Origin: a virus
Lineage: Duplodnaviria > Caudoviricetes
Reading direction: 5' to 3' (one strand)
Virus record (IMG/VR): IMGVR_UViG_3300011441_000022
Location: 1-40,333 of that record
Length of the DNA stretch: 40,333 nt
Part shown: positions 710 to 21,855 of the stretch, one piece after another
Layout: each line of letters starts with the position of its first letter
Numbering within the stretch: position 1 is the first letter of the stretch
The notes under the pieces: generated by a model
Database searches by the model: none
The model's input: the letters and a program-made list of their open reading frames with translations, nothing else
Told to the model about the DNA's origin: nothing
Translations under genes and position numbers: made by a program

Positions 710-850
710 CTAGTACGGTCGGTTGCGCACAATTAGTCTTCCGTTTGATTTTTCAACGTAGCACACTTGGGCTAGGAAGAATCTCCCTGTGCGCTCGAAA
801 CTCGGTATCCGCTTGTCTGCCATTGCAGCCACTAGATCGTACAAAGTCAA
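710..850 (-). CDS. Hypothetical protein
   Basis: Same frame as track ORF 710-937. A TTG at 850 overlaps the stop of 847-1269; start uncertain. Confidence 0.4.
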   Translation of the reverse strand: MTLYDLVAAMADKRIPSFERTGRFFLAQVCYVEKSNGRLIVRNRPY

Positions 851-1269
851 GACACCACCACCTTTCCATCCACCTTGTAATCCCGCAACACTCTTCGAAG
901 CTTCGGCAGAGCCCGCTCTTTCATCCATCGACGCCAAGTGCGAGTCGACCGCTTCTTCATGTACCGGGTGGCGTAGCTCACCGACTGCCTGTAGAGGAGC
1001 ACCCGCATAAGCACCCGCCTCTCCTGTACTGTAAACATTCCCAAAGCCTTTGTCAAGTCATACCGCAGCTCTGGTTGATCCTCCCGCACAAGCAGAGCCC
1101 GCTCTGTACCTTCCCCCTGTAAGTCTAGCAAAACAACCTCTTCTCTCTCCCCCTGGTCGTTGCGCAGGCGGAGCGCATGATAATCATCTGCCCTCACCTT
1201 TTTAGCCCCAAACCTTGTACTATCGGCCACCCTCTTGGGAGCCGGCTTAGCTTTCCTCTTGTTTTTCAT
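847..1269 (-). CDS. Sigma70 region-4-like HTH protein (possible phage transcription regulator)
   Basis: C-terminal LTKALGMFTVQERRVLMRVLL...SVSYAT...STRTWRRWMKERALPKLRRVL resembles sigma region 4; no region 2 visible. Confidence 0.5.
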   Translation of the reverse strand: MKNKRKAKPAPKRVADSTRFGAKKVRADDYHALRLRNDQGEREEVVLLDLQGEGTERALLVREDQPELRYDLTKALGMFTVQERRVLMRVLLYRQSVSYATRYMKKRSTRTWRRWMKERALPKLRRVLRDYKVDGKVVVS

Positions 1270-3282: not shown

Positions 3283-3665
3283 CAATCCTCCTTTGGAGAC
3301 ACGCTTGTTGGTTCGAACAATAGGAATGGCTCTTTGACTCCCTTGTGCCAGTTGTTCACGGCCAAGACGTTGCGCACCGGGTCGTCACCGAGCGCCGCTT
3401 GAAAGGCAGCCCTCACCGGCAGATCGTAGTCGACCGGCAAGCTTATGATTGCATGGTGGCCCTTGCCGTCTTTCGACGTGTAAAGGTGCTCCAGCTTCGC
3501 ACCGTATCGACGGCGCAGGATCTCGAAGACAAGATCATTCAGCTGCTTGCCATCGTCCAGGTCGACCAGCAGATGACGCGGGGTGCTGCGATGCACGATG
3601 AAGCCGGCGTCCGCAGCCTTATCAACCGCTGCTTCAAATTGTACGCTATAATCCGTTGATTCCAT
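3282..3665 (-). CDS. Small protein with AEP/primase-like motifs
   Basis: LLVDLD (hhhDhD) and YTSKDGKGHH (S..G.G.H) resemble AEP motifs I and II; only 127 aa. Confidence 0.45.
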   Translation of the reverse strand: MESTDYSVQFEAAVDKAADAGFIVHRSTPRHLLVDLDDGKQLNDLVFEILRRRYGAKLEHLYTSKDGKGHHAIISLPVDYDLPVRAAFQAALGDDPVRNVLAVNNWHKGVKEPFLLFEPTSVSPKED

Positions 3666-3849
3666 TGCGCTTTATCCTCCTTGCATCGCCCACGCCATAG
3701 CGAATCAGCTGACTCACTGACTCGGGAATCGGGAAGCTTCCGTCTTCCCACCGCTGCACTTGCCGCACACTGTAGCCCAAGGCCTTGGCGAGCGAGGCCT
3801 GGGTGTGATGCCGCTTCAGCCTTTCCGCAATGAATTCAGAGGCTTGCAT
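3646..3849 (-). CDS. XRE-family HTH protein
   Basis: TQASLAKALGYSVRQVQRWEDG..PIP. Confidence 0.85.
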   Translation of the reverse strand: MQASEFIAERLKRHHTQASLAKALGYSVRQVQRWEDGSFPIPESVSQLIRYGVGDARRIKRNGINGL

Positions 3850-4351
3850 GGTATCTCGCAATCTGTGCTTCAGCTTGTTTCCACAGCAACTCATTGCCGC
3901 CTTGCAGCGCCGGCAGCAGAGCTGCCTTCTCCGCCATGTACACGCGGGCAAACTTAGGATCGTGCAGCGTTATGTCTTCCGTGTTGTCGAGGAGATCCGC
4001 CAGCTTGATGGTTTTCACTTCAGCCGGCGCAGCTGCCAGCCGTATGCGTGACTGTGCTTTGCGCTCAGCGCGATTGCCTTGCTCCATGTCGGAGAGCGCA
4101 ATCACGTAGCTCGCCACCACCACGCCGAAGAGCTGCTTGATATCCGATGCTGTCGCCTTGGTGTCTTCGAGGGTGTCATGCAGCAGAGCTGCCATGATCA
4201 TCTGCGAATCACCGCGTACCGCTTCGACACGCGAGGCCACCGAGATCGGATGGTTGATGTAGGGCAAGCCCGTGTATTTGCGCACCTGGCCCTTGTGGGC
4301 TTCCGCTGCAAATACAGCAGCTTGCAGTATTGTGTTGAAGTATTCCATCAC
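3836..4351 (-). CDS. HD-domain (p)ppGpp hydrolase (small alarmone hydrolase, Mesh1/SpoT-HD-like)
   Basis: AHKGQVRK...PYINHP...AALLHDTLEDT...KLADLLDN; stand-alone, no synthetase domain. Confidence 0.9.
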   Translation of the reverse strand: MMEYFNTILQAAVFAAEAHKGQVRKYTGLPYINHPISVASRVEAVRGDSQMIMAALLHDTLEDTKATASDIKQLFGVVVASYVIALSDMEQGNRAERKAQSRIRLAAAPAEVKTIKLADLLDNTEDITLHDPKFARVYMAEKAALLPALQGGNELLWKQAEAQIARYHASL

Positions 4352-4473
4352 TCTGTCCCTCGCTCTTTCGTCAAGCGCTTCTGTGCGCTACGCTCAGCTT
4401 TCCAAAAGATCCGCTTCCACTTGCGCAGGTGCTTCCACCATTGCGGGGGCCGCGTTGCATTGCCTTGTTTCAC
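4348..4473 (-). CDS. Small basic Trp-rich peptide (41 aa, not in ORF track)
   Basis: MKQGNATRPPQWWKHLRKWKRIFWKAERSAQKRLTKERGTE; fills the gap exactly and is coupled to the HD gene. Confidence 0.55.
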   Translation of the reverse strand: MKQGNATRPPQWWKHLRKWKRIFWKAERSAQKRLTKERGTE

Positions 4474-4474
4474 G

Positions 4475-4678
4475 TTAGCCATTGAGCCCCCTCTGCGGCC
4501 AAAAGACATGCCGATTGCCCCCACGGTCGAGGAGCACCACGGATAGCTGCTTGTGATTCGCCAGCGCTTGGCACTCCGCCGCTATGCCGGCGCATTGCAC
4601 CGCGCTCTCCTCGTCAACCGGTTGCACCATGATATTCACTTGCCTCTCAGCAATTATCTGAATCAATGATCTGTTCAT
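4475..4678 (-). CDS. Hypothetical protein
   Basis: Fits the operon. Confidence 0.6.
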   Translation of the reverse strand: MNRSLIQIIAERQVNIMVQPVDEESAVQCAGIAAECQALANHKQLSVVLLDRGGNRHVFWPQRGLNG

Positions 4679-4861: not shown

Positions 4862-4916
4862 TTTTAACTCCTAACTGCTTGATCTTACTCACTTCATGCT
4901 CAAATGACATATAAAT

Positions 4917-5153
4917 AGCTCTTAATAGCTTAAAGAAGCTTTGCTATACTTAGCTTCTTAAAGCTTTAAGAAGCTGCTTAAAGCAGCCTAAGCTGCTTTA
5001 AGCTCATAGCTCTGGCTTAAGAGCCCTAAGCTCTTAAGCCCATAGCTCCAATAGCATAGCTCTGACTAAATGCCATAGCTCTAAAGCTTCAGGGAGCTTC
5101 ATAGCTTCGAGGAGCAAAGCTTCGAGGAGCTTCATGGCTTGCTCCGAGGAGCT
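4917..5153. repeat. AGCT-dense array with three tandem palindromes/hairpins and short direct repeats
   Basis: 19 AGCT by manual count. Perfect 24-bp palindrome 4952-4975; 12-bp inverted repeat 4976-5003; 11-bp inverted repeat 5014-5040; CATAGCT x5; AGCTTCGAGGAGC x2. Confidence 0.9.
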
Positions 5154-7067: not shown

Positions 7068-7376
7068 TTAAGCATCTTCTGTGCCAACGTCATCGATGGC
7101 ATTTTCGAGCATCTCTTCCCGTACCGCTGCCAATTGGTCTTCCCTGTCAGTGTCAATGCTGTCAATTGACTTGTCACCAATGACAAGATGACCGTCGACA
7201 AGCGATAGCGATGGAAAGCGCTCCAACATCGCTAGGCGTTGCTTTGCCTCTGCGATTGACTGCCGGTGACTCTCGATCAATGCTGTATTCACTGGTGTCT
7301 CACCTAACAGATAGCGAATGTTAGTTTCAGTGAAAGTGATTTTGAATCGTAGGTTGTCAGATTCAGTGTTATGCAT
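7068..7376 (-). CDS. Hypothetical acidic protein
   Basis: AGGAG RBS; operon context. Confidence 0.65.
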   Translation of the reverse strand: MHNTESDNLRFKITFTETNIRYLLGETPVNTALIESHRQSIAEAKQRLAMLERFPSLSLVDGHLVIGDKSIDSIDTDREDQLAAVREEMLENAIDDVGTEDA

Positions 7377-7765: not shown

Positions 7766-8452
7766 CTACAGAGTCACTAGAAAATCACTGTTCTGCTTTG
7801 CTCGTTTTTTTGCTTCATTACCTTTGATGCAAAGGCCTACAATTACGTTTTTCTTGTCAAGAAATCTCAAGTCATGCTCGGTGCCGTCTATGACTTCGTG
7901 CCCTTTGTAGCTGTCAGGGATATCGCCGGCGAATACCACGGCAACATTGACTCCGCGATTCATTGCGTCTTCACAAGCTTGCCAATTGTCACCACTGAAA
8001 GAGAATGTTAGGTGATAATTTGGTAGCTGTCCGCGATGCTGTAGCGGTACTTTGGTGTAATCGTAAAATTGAACTTCCGAGAATTCAACCATTAAGCTTG
8101 ACAATTTCTCCCATAGAATATCGCTTGTGCCGTTTAAGCGAATCGCAGGGATTAAATTCAATCGCTTTGCTCTTCGGATTAAGGCCTTGATATCTTGCCG
8201 CAAGGTATCGATGAAAGCTTGACGATTGCTCAAAAACTCCATCGTTTTGCGTGCCCTTGCAGCATTGATCTTCGGATATACTTGACCTAACCCGCTATCA
8301 ACTAAGCAATTCGTGAAACATGATTCGCTGGCATAGGGACAAAGCTTTGCTCGGTTTGTTCTTGGGTTAAGATACAGTATGCCCGTAAGATAACCGTAAG
8401 ACTCACCTAAGCTTGTCTTTGCATTGTCTTCCGCTAACAGTTTCATTGCCAT
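7766..8452 (-). CDS. GP88-like phage protein (Cys triad, possibly radical-SAM-like)
   Basis: CPYASESCFTNC, IRLNGTSD, FYDYTK, NYHLTFS, NVAVVF, DGTEHDLRFLD; AGGAG RBS. Confidence 0.75.
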   Translation of the reverse strand: MAMKLLAEDNAKTSLGESYGYLTGILYLNPRTNRAKLCPYASESCFTNCLVDSGLGQVYPKINAARARKTMEFLSNRQAFIDTLRQDIKALIRRAKRLNLIPAIRLNGTSDILWEKLSSLMVEFSEVQFYDYTKVPLQHRGQLPNYHLTFSFSGDNWQACEDAMNRGVNVAVVFAGDIPDSYKGHEVIDGTEHDLRFLDKKNVIVGLCIKGNEAKKRAKQNSDFLVTL

Positions 8453-8480
8453 ATTGTTCAATCTCCTATGCCAGTAACAA

Positions 8481-8829
8481 AGCAATCGATATGCCAGTGC
8501 AGCGTTGCGCTGGAATGCTCAATCGCTCCAAGATGCTCCAAGCGCTCTTCCGCGTTTTGTCATATCTGTCAAATCTTTGTGTCAATGTCATGTCAGAGAC
8601 AAAGAACTTGACTATGCAAGAGGCGTGCCAAAAGCAATTTCAAGCTTTGGAGCGCTCTTCCCTGCTAACTATGTGATATCCCTATGCAATATCCGTACCA
8701 CATCGAACGTTATGGTATGCTTGCCGATCTCTTAAGCAATATGCATGCCATGCTAAGTCATTGATATCATTAGTGTTTGTTGTTGCATGCAAGAACCGTG
8801 CCATGCTCGGACATGCAAGATCGGTGCCA
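8481..8829 (-). promoter_or_regulatory. Six tandem sigma54 (-24/-12) motifs facing the early genes
   Basis: Minus strand: TGGCATATCGATTGCT 8481-8496, TGGCACGCCTCTTGCA 8615-8630, TGGTACGGATATTGCA 8685-8700, TGGCATGCATATTGCT 8735-8750, TGGCACGGTTCTTGCA 8788-8803, TGGCACCGATCTTGCA 8814-8829; all GG-N10-GC. Confidence 0.85.
8754..8766 (-). promoter_or_regulatory. IHF binding site
   Basis: Minus strand TATCAATGACTTA matches WATCAANNNNTTR exactly; a one-mismatch copy lies at 8666-8678. Confidence 0.65.
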
Positions 8830-8835
8830 AGCATC

Positions 8836-8851
8836 TGGCATGGATTTTGCA
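8836..8851 (+). promoter_or_regulatory. sigma54 motif facing the packaging/structural genes
   Basis: TGGCATGGATTTTGCA, GG-N10-GC. Confidence 0.7.
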
Positions 8852-9032
8852 AGGCGGCGGCAGCGGGGTGGCCCCGAGGGGTGGGGTGGGCAGAGGTCCA
8901 TATTAGAGCCTTTTCTCATGCGTGTGGAACAAAAAGAACTTTCCTGTGCTCCTCCGCGCACTTAGCTCCTCTTTCGCCCACAGCTTTGACCAAAACTTCC
9001 ATGTTTGGGGCCAATAGGGTGAGGGGGACAAC

Positions 9033-9605
9033 ATGCCAAAGCTGCGTAAGCCAGGGAGATCTAAGAAAAAAGGGGTGCCCCCGACAAAGCGAGAACAAGC
9101 CCAGATGTTGGCGTTGAAGCAATTGAATCTCGGCAACTACCAAGTGGGCGAGATCATGGGCCGCTCGCCACACACCATCAGGAAATACTGCGAGAGCCCA
9201 ATGTTCACGGACCCGGCTTTCCAGAAGCTCGTGGAGGAGTACAAGAGCAAGGAGCTGATCGATCTCACAGCGATGAACATCAGCGCTCGGGCTCGCATTC
9301 ACGATCTCATTCCCACGATGACGCCAATCGAAGCTATCGCCACCATGGACAAGAGCTTCCAGCAACGCCGGCTCATCGAAGGCAAGAGCACAGAAAACAT
9401 CTTCAGCCTGCGCAAGATCATCGAGGAAGCCCACGGCCCTAGCATAGCGCAGAAGCCACAGGGGAGCACAGATGCCATTCAAGAGCAAAGCGCAGCAGCG
9501 CTACATGTTCGCCAAGGAGCCGGCGATAGCGAGAGAGATGGCGTCGAAGACGCCCAGTATCAAGAAGCTCCCGGAACACAAGAAGAAAAAGAAAAAGAAT
9601 CTTAA
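9033..9605 (+). CDS. terS: Putative terminase small subunit (N-terminal HTH)
   Basis: HTH-like NYQVGEIMGRSPHTIRKY, helical body, position upstream of terL. Confidence 0.65.
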   Translation: MPKLRKPGRSKKKGVPPTKREQAQMLALKQLNLGNYQVGEIMGRSPHTIRKYCESPMFTDPAFQKLVEEYKSKELIDLTAMNISARARIHDLIPTMTPIEAIATMDKSFQQRRLIEGKSTENIFSLRKIIEEAHGPSIAQKPQGSTDAIQEQSAAALHVRQGAGDSERDGVEDAQYQEAPGTQEEKEKES

Positions 9606-9621
9606 GCAAATCTTCGGATAA

Positions 9622-9695
9622 GGGCCTGTAGTGTAATGCGAGCACGTCTGCCCTGCAAGCAGACAGCGAGGGTTGAACTCCCTCCCGGTCCACCA
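9622..9695 (+). tRNA. tRNA-Ala(UGC), atypical
   Basis: Cloverleaf with G3:U70, A73 and encoded CCA. Anticodon loop CCTGCAA (C33), T-loop TTGAACT, 6:67 mismatch. Confidence 0.8.
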
Positions 9696-9699
9696 ATAA

Positions 9700-9775
9700 G
9701 CCCGAATAGCTCAGTTGGTAGAGCACTTGCCTTGTAAGCATGTGGTCGGCGGTTTGAATCCGTCTTCGGGCTCCA
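9700..9775 (+). tRNA. tRNA-Thr(UGU)
   Basis: GCCCGAA/TTCGGGC acceptor stem, TAGCTCAGTTGGTAGAGC D-arm, loop CTTGTAA, T-loop TTTGAAT, CCA end. Confidence 0.92.
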
Positions 9776-9790
9776 AACAAGAGAGGGATC

Positions 9791-11272
9791 ATGGCCCGTT
9801 CAGACGAGTCGGACATCGTACTGGCGTGGAGCAAGGATATCGAGAAGTATGTCGCAGACACGCTCCCCGATTTCACCTTCACACGTCAGCAGCTAGTCGC
9901 CGCCAAAGCCTTCGTGGAGTTGTGTTGGGCGAAGCTTGAAGTGAATAGCAATCCGAATGGGAAGCACAGCGAGAAGCTCAGGGCTCTCTCGCGCAAGTTC
10001 GGCATGAGCATCATGTCCGGTGTCGGCACAGGCAAAGGCGCTCTCGCCGCTGTGCTCGTGCTCTGGTTTTTGAGCGTGTTCCCTTATCCCAAATGCGTGG
10101 CGGTGTCGCCGTCAGCACGCCAGCTGCGAGACAACTTGTGGTCGGAGCTGGCGAAGTGGCATCAGAAGAGCAAGATCAAAGAATGGTTTGTGTGGCAGAG
10201 CGACAAGTTCTTCCTGAAGGAGTGCAATGGTCAGCAGTGGTTCATATCGGCACGCACGGCAAATCCGCGCAATAGTGCAGATGAGCAAGCAGAAACCCTC
10301 GCGGGTATCCACGAAGACTTCGTGCTTATCGTTGGCGACGAAGCTACGGGCGTGCCCGATCCTGTATTCCGACCGCTCGAAGCCACTCTCACACGTAAAT
10401 GCAACCTCTGCTTATTGACCTTCAACCCCACAAAGGGCAAAGGCTTTGCATACGACACGCAATTCAAGGAACGCGATCAATGGGTGACGTTCCGCTGGAA
10501 CAGTGAGGAATCGGAACTTGTCACAAAAGAAAGTATTGATCGACTCGAAAGAAAGTACGGAAGAGAGTCAAACTCATTTCGCATTCGTGTCTTGGGATTG
10601 CCTCCACTGTCTGGAGAGAATGAAGTTATTCCCTGGGATTGGATCGAAGAAGCAGTTGATAGAGAGCTGGAGCCCCTCTCGGACGATAAGCTCATTTACA
10701 GTCTCGACGTTGGAGCCGGGGGAGATGATTCGATACTCCTAAAGAAGCTCGGCCCCCGCGTGTTGAGCCTCGAAGCGAAGGGATACAACGAGAGCACGAA
10801 GGTGGTCGATTGGGCTGTGCGTGAAACGCTGGCTCAGCCGCCTACAGTGTTCTTTGGCGATCCGATCGGATGGGGGTGGGGCGTCATGGGTGAGATCGAG
10901 CGCCGCGTCAAGCACATGAATGTGGACGTGGTGCAGGTGAACGTCAGCGAGCATGCCTATCAGCCCGACCGCTTCCATAGGCTGCGCGACGAGCTGTGGT
11001 GGACCCTGCGCGAAGAGTTCGAGCGCGGCCATCTCAGCATTCCTGATGACCCAATCCTTAAAGGCGACTTAAACGCTCCTCACTACGATGATAGCACAGG
11101 CATCATCAAGGTGGAGAGCAAGGCCGATCTCAAGCGGCGCGGTGTCGAGAGCCCCAACCGGGCAGACGCCCTGATGATGACCATGCGGTATGGTGCCAGC
11201 GAAATTAGACGCCGGCCTCCCCCGCGTGATAAGGCCCGACAGCGCAGCCGAGAGAGCTGGCGCACAGCTTAA
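9791..11272 (+). CDS. terL: Terminase large subunit
   Basis: Walker A SGVGTGKG, Walker B LIVGDEA, motif III TFNP, nuclease SLDVGAGGDD and SPNRADA. Confidence 0.95.
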   Translation: MARSDESDIVLAWSKDIEKYVADTLPDFTFTRQQLVAAKAFVELCWAKLEVNSNPNGKHSEKLRALSRKFGMSIMSGVGTGKGALAAVLVLWFLSVFPYPKCVAVSPSARQLRDNLWSELAKWHQKSKIKEWFVWQSDKFFLKECNGQQWFISARTANPRNSADEQAETLAGIHEDFVLIVGDEATGVPDPVFRPLEATLTRKCNLCLLTFNPTKGKGFAYDTQFKERDQWVTFRWNSEESELVTKESIDRLERKYGRESNSFRIRVLGLPPLSGENEVIPWDWIEEAVDRELEPLSDDKLIYSLDVGAGGDDSILLKKLGPRVLSLEAKGYNESTKVVDWAVRETLAQPPTVFFGDPIGWGWGVMGEIERRVKHMNVDVVQVNVSEHAYQPDRFHRLRDELWWTLREEFERGHLSIPDDPILKGDLNAPHYDDSTGIIKVESKADLKRRGVESPNRADALMMTMRYGASEIRRRPPPRDKARQRSRESWRTA

Positions 11273-16960: not shown

Positions 16961-17794
16961 GTGGCAATCGTTAATCTTCGCCCCTTCTACGTGAAGCTGG
17001 TGAACACCCGCACAAAGCGCCCCATCGATGACGACACGGGCGTGTTCCAGGTCTACACCGCTGGCTCCGCTGCCCGCGCTACGATCTACAATGCGGCTGG
17101 CACGCAGCTCACCCAAGAAGTGGTCGGCACTTCGTTCATCTCTCGCACGATGACGGACGGTACGTTAGAGTTCTACACCGACCGTAGCGTTTCGAGCGTT
17201 GACGTTACTATCCTCACCGCTGGTGGGCGTTCGTACTTCCTGAAGAGCCTCTCGGCTTCGCAGCATCGTGCGGACGTTGACCCGGAACAAACCGAGTTCA
17301 CCCTCGTCGCTGCTTTCAACGACCGGGCGAGCTGCACCACTGTTCGTCCGTTGGGCTTCCGCCTGCGGCGCGGCATGGTGGTCAAAGACGTGTTGGTTAA
17401 AGTCACTGCGGCCTTTGCGGGCGCTGCGGCTGCTTCCAACCGCTATAGTGTGGGGCGTTCGGGAGCCGCAACTGGCTTCTTGAACAACATCACGCTCAGC
17501 TCTGTGGGTTTCAAAGTTGGCTCTCCGTCTGTTTCGACCACGGGCGTTGTCCTGGCTTCGCGCTACGGTGCAAGCTTGGCGCAATTCCATGCTTCGAGCA
17601 CGGCGTTTGTCGACTACTACATCCGCAAGAACTACATCGCGGCCACGGCCACGGCGTCGAATAACCTCGTTGTGAAACGTCAAACTGCGGCTACCTTAAC
17701 CCATTCGTTCACCAACACTGGTGTCAGTGGCGCGGGCAAAGGCTACATCTACTACATGTACACTTTGCTCCCCACCGAATTGGCAAGTCAGTAA
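16961..17794 (+). CDS. Ser/Thr/Ala-rich putative virion protein
   Basis: AAGGAG RBS; beta-rich two-domain appearance; head module position. Confidence 0.6.
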   Translation: MAIVNLRPFYVKLVNTRTKRPIDDDTGVFQVYTAGSAARATIYNAAGTQLTQEVVGTSFISRTMTDGTLEFYTDRSVSSVDVTILTAGGRSYFLKSLSASQHRADVDPEQTEFTLVAAFNDRASCTTVRPLGFRLRRGMVVKDVLVKVTAAFAGAAAASNRYSVGRSGAATGFLNNITLSSVGFKVGSPSVSTTGVVLASRYGASLAQFHASSTAFVDYYIRKNYIAATATASNNLVVKRQTAATLTHSFTNTGVSGAGKGYIYYMYTLLPTELASQ

Positions 17795-17810
17795 TCATCA
17801 TTGGAGGGAA

Positions 17811-19532
17811 ATGATGGATCAGCAAACACAGGCCGAGTTTCTACGCGGGAAGTATGAAGCTTCTCGCGTAGCAGCTCTGGCTGTTACCAGCAAAATCAAG
17901 AGCGGGGAATATCCTTTAGTGGATGTTCCCTGCTTTTGCGGTTCTAGGGACGCAGAGGTATTGGGTGAGCATGAGCGCTACGGCATTCCAGCTCGCATCG
18001 TGCTCTGCAAAGAGTGTGCGCTCATTCGCATCAATCCGCGAATGACCCAGAAGGCCTACACGGCCTTTTACAACGATCATTACCGAAAGTTAAATTCCCC
18101 TAAGCTCCTCACCCCCAACATCACCAATTTGGAGGAAGAGGAGATGGGCGTCTTCAACCGGCAGATGGAAAAGGGCGAAGGCATCATCAAGAAGATGCTG
18201 GAGCAAGCCATTCCAGCCCCCAAGAGGGTGCTGGACATTGGCTGTCATGTCGGCGGGATGCTTAAGCCCTTTGAAGAGCGCTTTGGTTCGGAGCTATGGG
18301 GTGTGGAGATCGATGAGGCCAGCGCAACCCATGCGCACGAGAACGGAGTGGCGGTCGTCCCTACAGTGGACGCCCTGATCTCCCGAGGGCTTAAGTTCGA
18401 CTTCATTATCATGCAGGACGTGTTGGAGCATTACACAGATCTCTACGATCTGCGTAAGGTGCGGGAGTTGATGACCCCCGACTCGTTCCTCTACATCTAC
18501 ACGCCTGGGCTGTTCCGTGCAAACATCCACAGCAACCTACAGATTGCGCACACTTTCTATTTCTGTGCGAACAATCTACATTGGACTCTTACGGAGCTAG
18601 GCTTCCACGTCACGTTCATCGATGAGGAATGCTACGCTTTCTGCCAGCGTGTTGAAGGGACTGTCATCAACAATCCTAAGCCAACGGAGTGGGTGGAATA
18701 TGTGCGAGATGAATGGGAAGGGAAAGACTTGCGCAAGATGCCGCCCTTCAGCGGGGTCTGCAAGTTCACCAAAGAAGAGCTGTACGGGAACATGCGCGAC
18801 GTGTTCGCAAGGAAGCTCCCCGATCTCTCAGAGATCACCCAGACGCAGCACGGAGGAGTGTGCATTGTCGCTGGCGGACCTTCCATTGACGGAGAAGTGG
18901 ACACCCTCCGAGAGCTACAAAAGCAGGGTATGCAAGTTATATCCATTCTGCGGATGTATCCTTGGTGTGTCCAGCACGGCATAGTGCCCGACTACGTGGT
19001 GAGTCTCGACTGCACTGACGACCAAGTGAATGGCTTCAGTGAGAAGGCTCCTGGAGTCACGTATCTGTTCGCCTCTGTGACGAATCCCTCTTTCCTCGAC
19101 CAAGTGGTGGGGGAGAAGATTTACATCTTCGATAGCAGGGATGATCGGAAGATCCAAGACCTGCGCAGGGATGCGGGCTACACCCGCTGCTCCGTCGTAA
19201 ATGGCGGGGGCAGTGTGGCAATCTGCTCCATCTCTCTTGCATTCAACCTTGGCTTCCGCGAGCTGCACATCTTCGGGCTCGACTGCATGATGCCTTCCGT
19301 TGAGAAGACGCATGCGGACGGCATCGCCGGCAAGAGCATCGACGTGCGCCCGCTGCCTATCGAGATCGCAGGGGAGACAATCCTCACCACAGGAGCCTGG
19401 CTGGAATTCACCAACCAAGCCCTGGACCTGATCTCTGTCGCGCAGCAAGAGGGAGCGCTGGACAAGGTGCAATTCCATGGGGAATGCCTTGCAAACAAAT
19501 TGTGGGATGGAACCTTCTCGGAGGGAGAATGA
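17811..19532 (+). CDS. Fusion of class I SAM methyltransferase (Zn-binding N-terminus) and DUF115/Maf-type glycosyltransferase domain
   Basis: CFC...CKEC, VLDIGC, GVEID, FDFIIMQDVLEH; then CIVAGGPSI, HGIVPDYVVSLD, GGSVA...LAFNLGFRELHIFGLD. GGAGG RBS before 17811. Confidence 0.85.
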   Translation: MMDQQTQAEFLRGKYEASRVAALAVTSKIKSGEYPLVDVPCFCGSRDAEVLGEHERYGIPARIVLCKECALIRINPRMTQKAYTAFYNDHYRKLNSPKLLTPNITNLEEEEMGVFNRQMEKGEGIIKKMLEQAIPAPKRVLDIGCHVGGMLKPFEERFGSELWGVEIDEASATHAHENGVAVVPTVDALISRGLKFDFIIMQDVLEHYTDLYDLRKVRELMTPDSFLYIYTPGLFRANIHSNLQIAHTFYFCANNLHWTLTELGFHVTFIDEECYAFCQRVEGTVINNPKPTEWVEYVRDEWEGKDLRKMPPFSGVCKFTKEELYGNMRDVFARKLPDLSEITQTQHGGVCIVAGGPSIDGEVDTLRELQKQGMQVISILRMYPWCVQHGIVPDYVVSLDCTDDQVNGFSEKAPGVTYLFASVTNPSFLDQVVGEKIYIFDSRDDRKIQDLRRDAGYTRCSVVNGGGSVAICSISLAFNLGFRELHIFGLDCMMPSVEKTHADGIAGKSIDVRPLPIEIAGETILTTGAWLEFTNQALDLISVAQQEGALDKVQFHGECLANKLWDGTFSEGE

Positions 19533-20413
19533 TCTTTCCAAAAGACTCAACTTTCATTATCGGTGAGATTGGCGTCAACCATAACGCCAGCATGGACATT
19601 GCGAAGGAGCTTATCATCGGGGCGGCTGAGGCCGGCGCGAACGCTGTCAAGTTTCAGAAGCGCACCCCGCACATGAGCCTCCCGCCTGAAAAGTGGGACG
19701 TGATACGCGACACCCCTTTCGGGCCAATGAAGAGTATCGAGTATCGGCAGAAGATGGAATTCAGCTGGAGCCAGTTCGAAGAGCTGATGAGTTTCGCATG
19801 GGAGCGGGGCCTCTATTGCTTCGCCTCGCCGTGGGATATTCAAGCTGCGAATGGCCTCGCGTCCATTGGCAATCCGATCTACAAGGTGGCCTCAGCCACC
19901 CTCACAAACATTCCGCTCCTCGAAGCTATTGCCGCGATCAAAGCCCCTGTGATCGTCAGCACTGGCATGAGCGATCTCGACATGGTACGGAAGGCCATCG
20001 GCATCTTCCAAAGCCATGGGGTGCCCGAGTTGGGCATCCTGGCATGCACAAGCACCTATCCCGCCCCCGTAGAGAGCCTTAACCTTCGGCGCATCTACAC
20101 GCTGAAGAACATGTACCCGGAATGCGTTATCGGCTACTCCGGGCATGAAGTGGGGCTCTGGACGACTCTCTGCGCCGTGGCGATGGGCGCTCGCATTGTC
20201 GAGCGTCACATCACCCTGGACAGGGCCATGAAGGGCTCAGACCATGCGGCCTCTGTCGAACTGCGCGGCTTCGAGCTGCTGTGTCGTGAGATCCGGCAGT
20301 TTGAAGCCGCTCGCGGTGACGGTGCTCTAAAGATTCAGGAGTGTGAGTATGCTGACATTGCCCGTTTACGAGGATCTCCTTTCCCCCTCACCGGGGCGAC
20401 GAGGCACCAATGA
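19529..20413 (+). CDS. neuB: N-acetylneuraminate/nonulosonate synthase family (no SAF domain)
   Basis: IIGEIGVNHN, AVKFQ, KVAS, VSTG, CTSTYP, GYSGHE, VERHITLD, GSDHAAS; ATGA overlap with upstream gene. Confidence 0.95.
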   Translation: MIFPKDSTFIIGEIGVNHNASMDIAKELIIGAAEAGANAVKFQKRTPHMSLPPEKWDVIRDTPFGPMKSIEYRQKMEFSWSQFEELMSFAWERGLYCFASPWDIQAANGLASIGNPIYKVASATLTNIPLLEAIAAIKAPVIVSTGMSDLDMVRKAIGIFQSHGVPELGILACTSTYPAPVESLNLRRIYTLKNMYPECVIGYSGHEVGLWTTLCAVAMGARIVERHITLDRAMKGSDHAASVELRGFELLCREIRQFEAARGDGALKIQECEYADIARLRGSPFPLTGATRHQ

Positions 20414-21120
20414 GAACAGTGTGCATAGTGCAGGCTCGGATGGGCAACACCCGATTGCCTGGGAAGAACGGAAGAATGCTTTGCGGACTGCCGCAGATCT
20501 GGCACGTCTTAAAGCGCATATCAAGAGCTTCGACCTTCACGGAGATCATGCTGGCGATCCCCCACGAGAGCAACGGTGGGATACAGATCGACGCAGCCCG
20601 CTCTCTCGGTATTCCGTATCTCGACTACCGTGGCGATCCTAACGATCTGGTACATCGCTACGCTCTGGCCGCTGATATCATGGACGCTTCTGTTGTTGTA
20701 CGCATTCCTGGTGATAATACTCTGGTGGACCCGGACGAGATAGACCGCATCGTAAATTATTACAATGCGAATCCATGCTCCTGGGACGTGCTCACCACCA
20801 ACCTAGACAGGAACGTGCTCGACAACGGGTATCCAGCCGGCCTGGGAGCGGAAGTGTACGACGCTCGCTACTTTCAGATGATCGACAAATTGAAGCTCCC
20901 CAAGCACCAGCGGGAGCATCCTCACAAGTGGGCCTTCGAAAACTTCAAGGTGAGAACGATCAGCGCTCCCCCCTACATCTACAATCCAGGGGTGAGCTAC
21001 TCCATCGACACGGAGGCTGATTGGGCGTTCACGGAGGAGATCTACGAAGCCCTCTGGCGTAACAATCCCGACTTTCGCATCCGCGATATCAATCAGTATG
21101 TAGGAGAAAAGCATGGCTAA
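20410..21120 (+). CDS. SpsF-like CMP-nonulosonate cytidylyltransferase
   Basis: IVQARMGNTRLPGK, VVRIPGDN, YPAGL, REHP, SIDTEAD; ATGA overlap with neuB. Confidence 0.9.
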   Translation: MRTVCIVQARMGNTRLPGKNGRMLCGLPQIWHVLKRISRASTFTEIMLAIPHESNGGIQIDAARSLGIPYLDYRGDPNDLVHRYALAADIMDASVVVRIPGDNTLVDPDEIDRIVNYYNANPCSWDVLTTNLDRNVLDNGYPAGLGAEVYDARYFQMIDKLKLPKHQREHPHKWAFENFKVRTISAPPYIYNPGVSYSIDTEADWAFTEEIYEALWRNNPDFRIRDINQYVGEKHG

Positions 21121-21427
21121 CGACATTACCAACAATCCACTTGTGCTCGATACGGCAGCGGCCACCGCTGTCATCAGCAATCTTTTCCGCATCACAGCCA
21201 TCAAGTGGACGGTTGATGCCGGTGCCACTGACAACGACACGGTGGTTCTCACCGACAAGAATGGTAAGGTGATCTACGAAGAGATCCTCACCGTCATCAC
21301 GAGCGGCATGACGCAGGCTCCTCCGATCAGCTTCCCTATCCCGCTGAAGTGCAACGGCTTGATTTGCCCCACGCTTAGCGGCGGCAAGGTGTACGTTTAT
21401 TGGGAAGGCCAGCAGCCCACGGCGTAA
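21113..21427 (+). CDS. Small putative virion protein
   Basis: Thr-rich beta protein ending GLICPTLSGGKVYVY; AGGAG RBS. Confidence 0.55.
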   Translation: MANDITNNPLVLDTAAATAVISNLFRITAIKWTVDAGATDNDTVVLTDKNGKVIYEEILTVITSGMTQAPPISFPIPLKCNGLICPTLSGGKVYVYWEGQQPTA

Positions 21428-21429
21428 CC

Positions 21430-21855
21430 ATGAGAAAAGACAATCGCTATGACAGCTTGATTCAGTATTACGCTGAGGAGAATGGCTTCCATGGCAAAGA
21501 GTGGTTCTGGCTGAAGGCTCAGATCAAAGCCGAGTCCGCATTCAACCCTACTGCCAAGTCAGGCGTGGGCGCGAAGGGGCTCGGCCAGTTTATGCCTCCC
21601 ACCTGGGGGGAATGGGGCAGAGGGCAGGACGTGTTCAACCCGGAAGCCAACATCGAAGCGCAGGCTCGATACATGAAATGGCTCCTCGGTCGCGTTACCA
21701 CTTGGGACTGTGCCTTCGCCGCTTACAATTGGGGCATTGGCAACGTGCTGAAGGTGTGGCAGAACAGCAATTGGAAGAACACGCTTCCCAAAGAGACAAA
21801 AGACTACATCGTCCGCATCAATCAGTATCACGAGGAGTATCTCAATGGCAATTAG
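21430..21855 (+). CDS. SLT-family lytic transglycosylase (endolysin or virion lysin)
   Basis: AES (catalytic Glu), GAKGLGQFMP, AAYNWG, ETKDY. Confidence 0.92.
   Translation: MRKDNRYDSLIQYYAEENGFHGKEWFWLKAQIKAESAFNPTAKSGVGAKGLGQFMPPTWGEWGRGQDVFNPEANIEAQARYMKWLLGRVTTWDCAFAAYNWGIGNVLKVWQNSNWKNTLPKETKDYIVRINQYHEEYLNGN

Follow-up and report, generated by a model that had tools for sequence, protein, structure and literature searches.

Early gene expression in phages is usually described in terms of sigma-70 promoters or phage polymerases. The T7 promoters A1–A3 are activator-free sigma-70 early promoters that pull DNA into the cell by transcribing it, and sigma-54 sites cannot fire without an activator. 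At lambda cos, IHF acts at the packaging origin upstream of terS. For the Escherichia coli sigma-54 factor, the available part of PMC4591121 describes roughly 250 host sites, mostly inactive binding of the holoenzyme in vivo under any condition, and single sites that form no roadblocks, and the excerpted text of PMC2715252 reports that sigma-54 binds DNA without core polymerase in vitro. For phage T5, an in silico proposal places an injection stop region at a group of DnaA boxes (10.1101/866236, in part), and the portion of 10.1101/2023.10.13.562163 at hand maps a sigma-54-like promoter in Pseudomonas phage YuA. This single promoter is the nearest case in the full-text literature searched (a body from which subscription papers are mostly missing), where we found no description of a phage sigma-54 array; the accessible passages of PMC11797060 and PMC8244752 treat rpoN just as a host gene or a host motif. 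Here we describe such an array in a whole viral record of 40,333 bases (hereafter, the window) from a podovirus-like phage whose portal is of the P22 type.

The divergence point and its motifs

The sites lie in a 580-bp gap (8453–9032) between a leftward early operon led by a GP88-family gene (7766–8452, minus strand; PF17338 and phrog_1617) and a rightward series of putative terS (small terminase; 9033–9605, plus strand), two tRNAs and terL (large terminase; 9791–11272, plus strand; phrog_2), which bears out the early/late divergence point of the original prediction. The putative terS is assigned by position and features (that is, a helix-turn-helix protein ahead of terL), and a family search with it gave no match. 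The tRNAs, tRNA-Ala(TGC) and tRNA-Thr(TGT), are encoded at 9622–9775 (plus strand), a stretch that is absent in some strains. Indels in the alignment of the gap with a relative indicate that the gap is non-coding.

As predicted, exactly seven pattern matches occur in the 40,333 bases, all within 8481–8851, six on the minus strand and one on the plus strand, with offsets of 134, 70, 50, 53 and 26 bp; shuffled sequence gave a mean of 0.17 matches and no shuffle reached seven. Given that this pattern had been fitted to the sites, looser and independent tests were added. With the looser TGG-N8-TTGC, 7 of the 20 matches in the window fall in 8400–9000, and with an RpoN weight matrix derived from unrelated phage loci (571 sites), seven of the nine hits of at least 13 bits are the seven sites (14.2–21.7 bits), in line with the local enrichment that had been anticipated. 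GG at −24 and GC at −12 are present at the exact 10-base spacing in 7/7 sites, and the spacers differ between sites, so the earlier view that the motif is what is conserved holds and tandem duplication is ruled out as the origin of the sites.

A complete relative (G001/L008; TerL 93%) retains four of the seven sites (that is, 1, 5, 6 and 7). Site 1 (8481–8496, minus strand; core 10/10 and spacer 2/5 kept in the relative) would start transcription near 8470; the GP88 start codon follows 18 nt later, and a ribosome site lies at 8462–8467. It is a candidate real promoter, and given an active host activator it probably has a second role in driving the early operon. Site 2 (8615–8630, minus strand; core 3/10) and site 4 (8735–8750, minus strand; core 2/10) are lost in the relative, and of site 3 (8685–8700, minus strand), whose −24 half forms an arm of a short inverted repeat (8694–8719), just this half and the inverted repeat are retained. 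Site 5 (8788–8803, minus strand; core 10/10) opens a tight conserved triplet, in which site 6 (8814–8829, minus strand; core 9/10) lies 26 bp from site 5 and back to back with site 7 (8836–8851, plus strand; core 10/10), which faces terS from 180 bp away and abuts a G-rich tract. Across the retained sites, 39/40 core positions are identical, compared with 13/20 in the spacers and 271/466 in the other gap DNA. An eighth motif that the original prediction overlooked (7072–7086, minus strand; 16.6 bits, 17.0 bits in the G001 counterpart) lies at the end of the ORF at 7068–7376, approximately 55 bp ahead of a DUF932 gene, and is also conserved. Site 1 and this eighth motif are the ones just ahead of a gene in the sense orientation; sites 2–6 are 160–380 bp from a gene. 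The early genes of G001 begin with a different GP88 variant.

The gap holds further elements that had been missed. An IHF consensus box (WATCAA-N4-TTR; 8754–8766, minus strand) has a same-strand match upstream of terS both in the complete relative and in a distant one (L018), and both have tracts resembling the 50-base stretch of the contig that is richest in G (29 G; 8849–8898, plus strand), which may mark a packaging origin or genome end. Five TGTCA words (8558–8595, plus strand) lie approximately 90–125 bp upstream of the predicted start of site 1, with six at the aligned place in the complete relative, and could be binding sites for an activator or sigma-70 −35 boxes that have decayed. The gap contains no sigma-70 promoter match at 9 of 12 positions and two at 8 of 12, and no DnaA box was found in 8453–9032. 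A structured RNA or hairpin was considered and rejected (z −1.3, with no Rfam family there). Repeated AGCGCTCTTCC words occur at 8541–8551 and 8651–8661, and at 3599–3653 of L008 the gap word is expanded to four AGCGCT copies.

Assembled RNA contigs cover the window at a depth of 2–9, and two runs begin at 9029; among the RNA contigs listed, none falls in the bin 8719–9019 in four runs. One RNA contig (8299–8554) crosses the predicted start of site 1. All of these RNA observations are weak hints at most, given possible DNA carry-over. DNA depth, taken from contigs, has no step at the G-rich tract. Contig ends were dropped as terminus evidence because many of them fall inside arrays; in one record, a 443-bp end match is 94% identical.

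Elsewhere in the window, a protein of 140 aa (847–1269, minus strand) that gave a lead resembling sigma-70 region 4 is a candidate phage transcription factor, and a resolvase-family serine recombinase gene (1247–1993) adjoins its gene. An HD-domain gene (3746–4482) is 98% identical to that of G001, compared with 67–85% elsewhere, which suggests recent transfer. A block of low complexity and high AT content (4900–5150), in which AAGC/GCTT words recur alongside palindromes, is a possible replication origin. Methyltransferase/MptE-like, NeuB and cytidylyltransferase genes within the structural region (17721–21120, plus strand) suggest sialic-acid-like sugar modification of the virion, and an SLT lysin (21400–21855) is swapped for an unrelated lysozyme-like gene in G001 (8987–9415). 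A search for the host found no TerL relative in genome_contigs, and NeuB homologues gave no host name.

Relatives and cultured phages

The expectation that the array would recur upstream of terS in related phages holds for near-identical records, for the complete relative and for L018, but fails for three more distant TerL relatives, which have no array in 1.5–4 kb of upstream DNA. All seven sites are present in six near-identical records. In L018 (TerL 39%), six sites (four plus and two minus) lie upstream of terS and are followed by a G-rich tract. Both L008 and L018 have sigma-70 matches for their early genes. Strain L006 matches the window at 99% identity from the array up to nt 240 of terS and at approximately 90% further on; the mosaic boundary lies within terS near nt 240, such that the N-terminal helix-turn-helix part is shared together with the upstream DNA and the C-terminal part differs (74% overall). 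Given that packaging sites travel with the DNA-binding part of TerS, this mosaic suggests a packaging origin here. The TerL of the window is nearest (29–35% identity) to those of phages that include the proven headful packager B83 (29%; PMC6669507, in part); with headful packaging, genome ends drift after the first headful.

Three of 26 annotated phage records, a non-random set, carry pairs or clusters of sites, and the other 23 have neither under a looser pattern, which was used because the strict one recovers one of the six VpV262 sites; the looser rescan covered all but two large records, Tunturi_5 and phiCbK. A BLAST search of the array DNA against cultured phages returned nothing useful. 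In Vibrio phage VpV262, six sites at 173–346, the six best in the genome, come directly after a C6 tract and lie 35 bp to the inside of the terminal repeat, which is annotated as 138 bp long; four point inward and two outward, approximately 690 bp before the first gene. Early and late genes of VpV262 diverge across the genome end, as they do across the gap in the window, and because this layout is T7-like, the array-bearing end presumably enters first. In pVp-1, two site pairs have DnaA boxes next to them and lie past A2, A1 and dmp in a T5-like pre-early block; V22 has one 28-bp pair and one single site. The host species of VpV262 and pVp-1 has RpoN, as stated in the accessible text of PMC9817140.

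Distribution, ligand and spacing

Tandem sites occur in approximately 1600 viral contig stretches (an estimate from 5 of 64 parts), and a control spacing one base longer is approximately 12-fold rarer (about 130 viral stretches in 59 of 64 parts), with repeats that mostly have periods in multiples of three. Triple arrays number approximately 300 in viral contigs versus 52 in cellular genomes totalling 596 billion bases, and 40 of those 52 cellular matches lie in long open frames versus 14 of 120 viral ones; non-coding sigma-54 arrays are thus common in phages and rare in cellular genomes. One of the cellular matches is itself on a contig that looks like phage, where terS and terL lie downstream of the array. 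An element resembling a satellite in a Methylococcaceae assembly (L309, 3950–4220) has eight motifs with a 40–41-bp period beside a primase gene, and a contig binned as Saccharibacteria (L306, 3835–4322), possibly mis-binned phage DNA, has eleven sites with a 25-bp period in an assembly without an RpoN match. G024 and G025 carry approximately 18–20 sites over 10–14 kb, mostly on one strand, outside a tight array.

Arrays adjoin unrelated terminase families. Among 80 loci with flanks (122 ORFs scanned), a terminase is the largest ORF of a flank in 33, a raw rate without a random-locus baseline, and it points away from the array in 32 of these 33. These 32 loci form 14 sequence clusters, with 18 loci in one family. 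A G tract follows the array in 23/32 loci, an adjacency that is driven by this family (17/18, compared with 6/14 outside it). Across 133 loci, IHF boxes (31 versus 5.7 when shuffled, with flat spacing controls), DnaA boxes (55 versus 13.7) and sigma-70-like promoters (82 versus 11.5) are enriched near arrays, and PhoB, NifA, CRP and CtrA boxes are not.

The original prediction took the motif to be the RpoN consensus, and this extends to positions that no search had fixed: in 403 phage sites, −27 is Y in 84%, −20 is G in 73% and −11 is W in 87%, as in the established RpoN consensus. RpoN is encoded in seven of the nine cellular assemblies with non-coding arrays. The earlier remark that no activator is visible in the window also stands, as neither a sigma-54 DNA-binding domain nor an activator was found among its 71 scanned ORFs, and PF04552 and PF00158 gave matches in none of 30 array-bearing records, 20 of them at least 90% complete. 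Judging from sequence, the ligand is very probably host sigma-54.

Co-occupancy of sites 26 bp apart had been called unlikely, a view that a comparison of unrelated phages does not support, as 26–29 bp is the commonest direct spacing among them and the spacing is helically phased. Within the search range of 23–53 bp, direct spacings have a floor at 24 bp, a peak at 26–29 bp and a drop at 30–34 bp; with 76 clusters weighted equally, the density is 5.2 per bp at 24–29 bp versus 0.7 at 30–34 bp, and the period is 10.5 (p approximately 0.004). Back-to-back pairs, scanned separately (26 of 64 parts in the first scan), number 139 at offsets of 20–25, 5 at 26–29 and 80 at 30–33, counts that are uncorrected for kinship. 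Such a forbidden zone, one half-turn wide, would be expected from two proteins bound at once, and together with the helical phasing the empty zone of back-to-back pairs at 26–29 bp argues for co-occupancy. The window triplet (sites 5–7) has both favoured offsets.

Possible roles of the array

We tentatively favour a scenario, to which we would give a little under even chances, in which host sigma-54 polymerase docks silently at the genome end and holds or shields the DNA that enters first. The seven motifs would form a phased cluster beside the IHF box and the G-rich tract, close to which the genome end of the window probably lies; polymerase would dock there as silent closed complexes, adjacent sites may be filled simultaneously, and the docked complexes could then hold or shield the first-entering DNA, a structural role akin to a clamp that would need neither activator nor RNA. 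Support comes from the RpoN consensus and clustering of the sites, the end location in VpV262, the phasing, the four retained sites, the lack of a phage-coded sigma-54 or activator, the terminases that point away from arrays, the enrichment of IHF boxes, the mosaic in L006, the pVp-1 sites beside DnaA boxes and the mostly inactive binding of sigma-54 in E. coli. Its main weaknesses are that the gap, the largest non-coding one in the first 15.5 kb, is where any non-coding element would lie by default, which may partly account for the position of the array, and that TerL is akin to that of a headful packager, whose ends drift; in addition, the closest distinct relative retains just four of the seven sites. 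Further points against docking are the absence of arrays from the three more distant TerL relatives and of pairs or clusters from most annotated phage records, the dependence of G-tract adjacency on one family, the lack of roadblocks at single sigma-54 sites in E. coli, and the ability of RecBCD to evict RNA polymerase. The generalization that unrelated phages use silent sigma-54 polymerase as a structural cap, with helically phased closed complexes that anchor or shield incoming DNA, we regard as possible but rather doubtful.

The alternatives are not exclusive of docking or of one another. A battery of sigma-54 promoters for the early genes, fired by a host enhancer-binding protein such that phage development follows a host signal, was part of the original prediction, and site 1 fits it: this site and the one at 7072 lie just ahead of genes and both are conserved, six of the seven sites face the early operon, the IHF box and TGTCA cluster lie at enhancer distance, the gap is poor in sigma-70 matches, and YuA has its mapped promoter. 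The remaining sites fit less well. Although sites in the wider set face away from the terminase 99 to 44, this bias comes from one family, and the other 14 loci split into 6 away, 7 toward and 1 tie; L018 and VpV262 have mixed orientations, with the VpV262 sites far ahead of the first gene, the early genes of L008 and L018 come with sigma-70 matches, and alternative promoters need no phased, abutting pairs. We consider the battery unlikely as the main role, if still a serious contender. The adjacency of the conserved triplet to the G-rich tract and IHF box, the movement of the array with the N-terminal part of terS in strain mosaics and the position of arrays upstream of terminase operons would also suit a packaging platform, in which the packaging origin takes its shape from sigma-54 polymerase and IHF, which also mark the cut and cap the side that stays unpackaged; the pVp-1 sites, however, lie several kilobases inside the inferred end, away from the cut, and we find this role improbable.

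A DNA sponge, also part of the original prediction, would titrate away sigma-54 or its holoenzyme and thereby dampen the sigma-54 responses of the host; it accords with near-perfect sites in either orientation and variable number without an activator, and after replication hundreds of sites (copy number assumed) would exceed the E. coli complement given in part of PMC4591121. Yet seven sites at infection are few next to those of the host, and neither the end position nor the neighbouring G tract is needed for titration; the sponge thus survives as an idea that leaves position and phasing unexplained, and we hold it to be quite improbable. Least credible, and very improbable in our view, is that the motifs bind a phage protein such as TerS or a repressor, or that the cluster is neutral repeat debris: a helix-turn-helix TerS candidate is next door and three sites are unconserved, but the same bipartite motif recurs in RpoN detail beside unrelated terminases, cores outlast spacers and other gap DNA in L008, and the control spacing is far rarer. 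Returning to silent docking, if activator-free sigma-54 arrays do prove widespread at genome ends, DNA entry or packaging would gain a further host factor, and the silent binding of sigma-54, for which even E. coli offers no explanation, would acquire a role; RNA polymerase would then be used non-transcriptionally, as a hidden host factor for infection. VpV262 offers a testable case, as it is cultured, has annotated ends and six sites, and infects a species for which an rpoN mutant has been described.

Compared with known systems, the array shares with bacterial sigma-54 promoters and silent sites (as far as the available parts of PMC4591121 and PMC2715252 describe them) the motif, the exact spacing and a nearby IHF box, and the bacterial sites are known to be bound in an inactive closed complex; the array has seven phased sites in 371 bp, in both orientations and without an activator gene. 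YuA (10.1101/2023.10.13.562163, in part) is likewise a phage that uses a sigma-54-type site, but with a single mapped promoter and no cluster. As in T7 A1–A3, tandem RNA polymerase sites lie at what is probably the early end, mostly inward with one outward; the window gap, in contrast, lacks a strong sigma-70 match (none at 9 of 12), and the inward majority (6/7) gives way to mixed orientation in L018, in VpV262 and outside one family. Like lambda cos, the window has a site for a host DNA-binding protein beside a putative packaging origin upstream of terS, whereas its repeated element is a sigma factor site. In the injection stop region of T5, host-protein boxes cluster in non-coding DNA near the first-entering end, as the window sites may do, and pVp-1 has sigma-54 sites and DnaA boxes side by side where this region lies in T5. 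The window differs in that the ligand would be sigma-54, the gap has no DnaA box and the end is placed indirectly, and we know of no two-step injection for this phage; the array would extend to sigma-54 the host-factor box arrays at phage ends.
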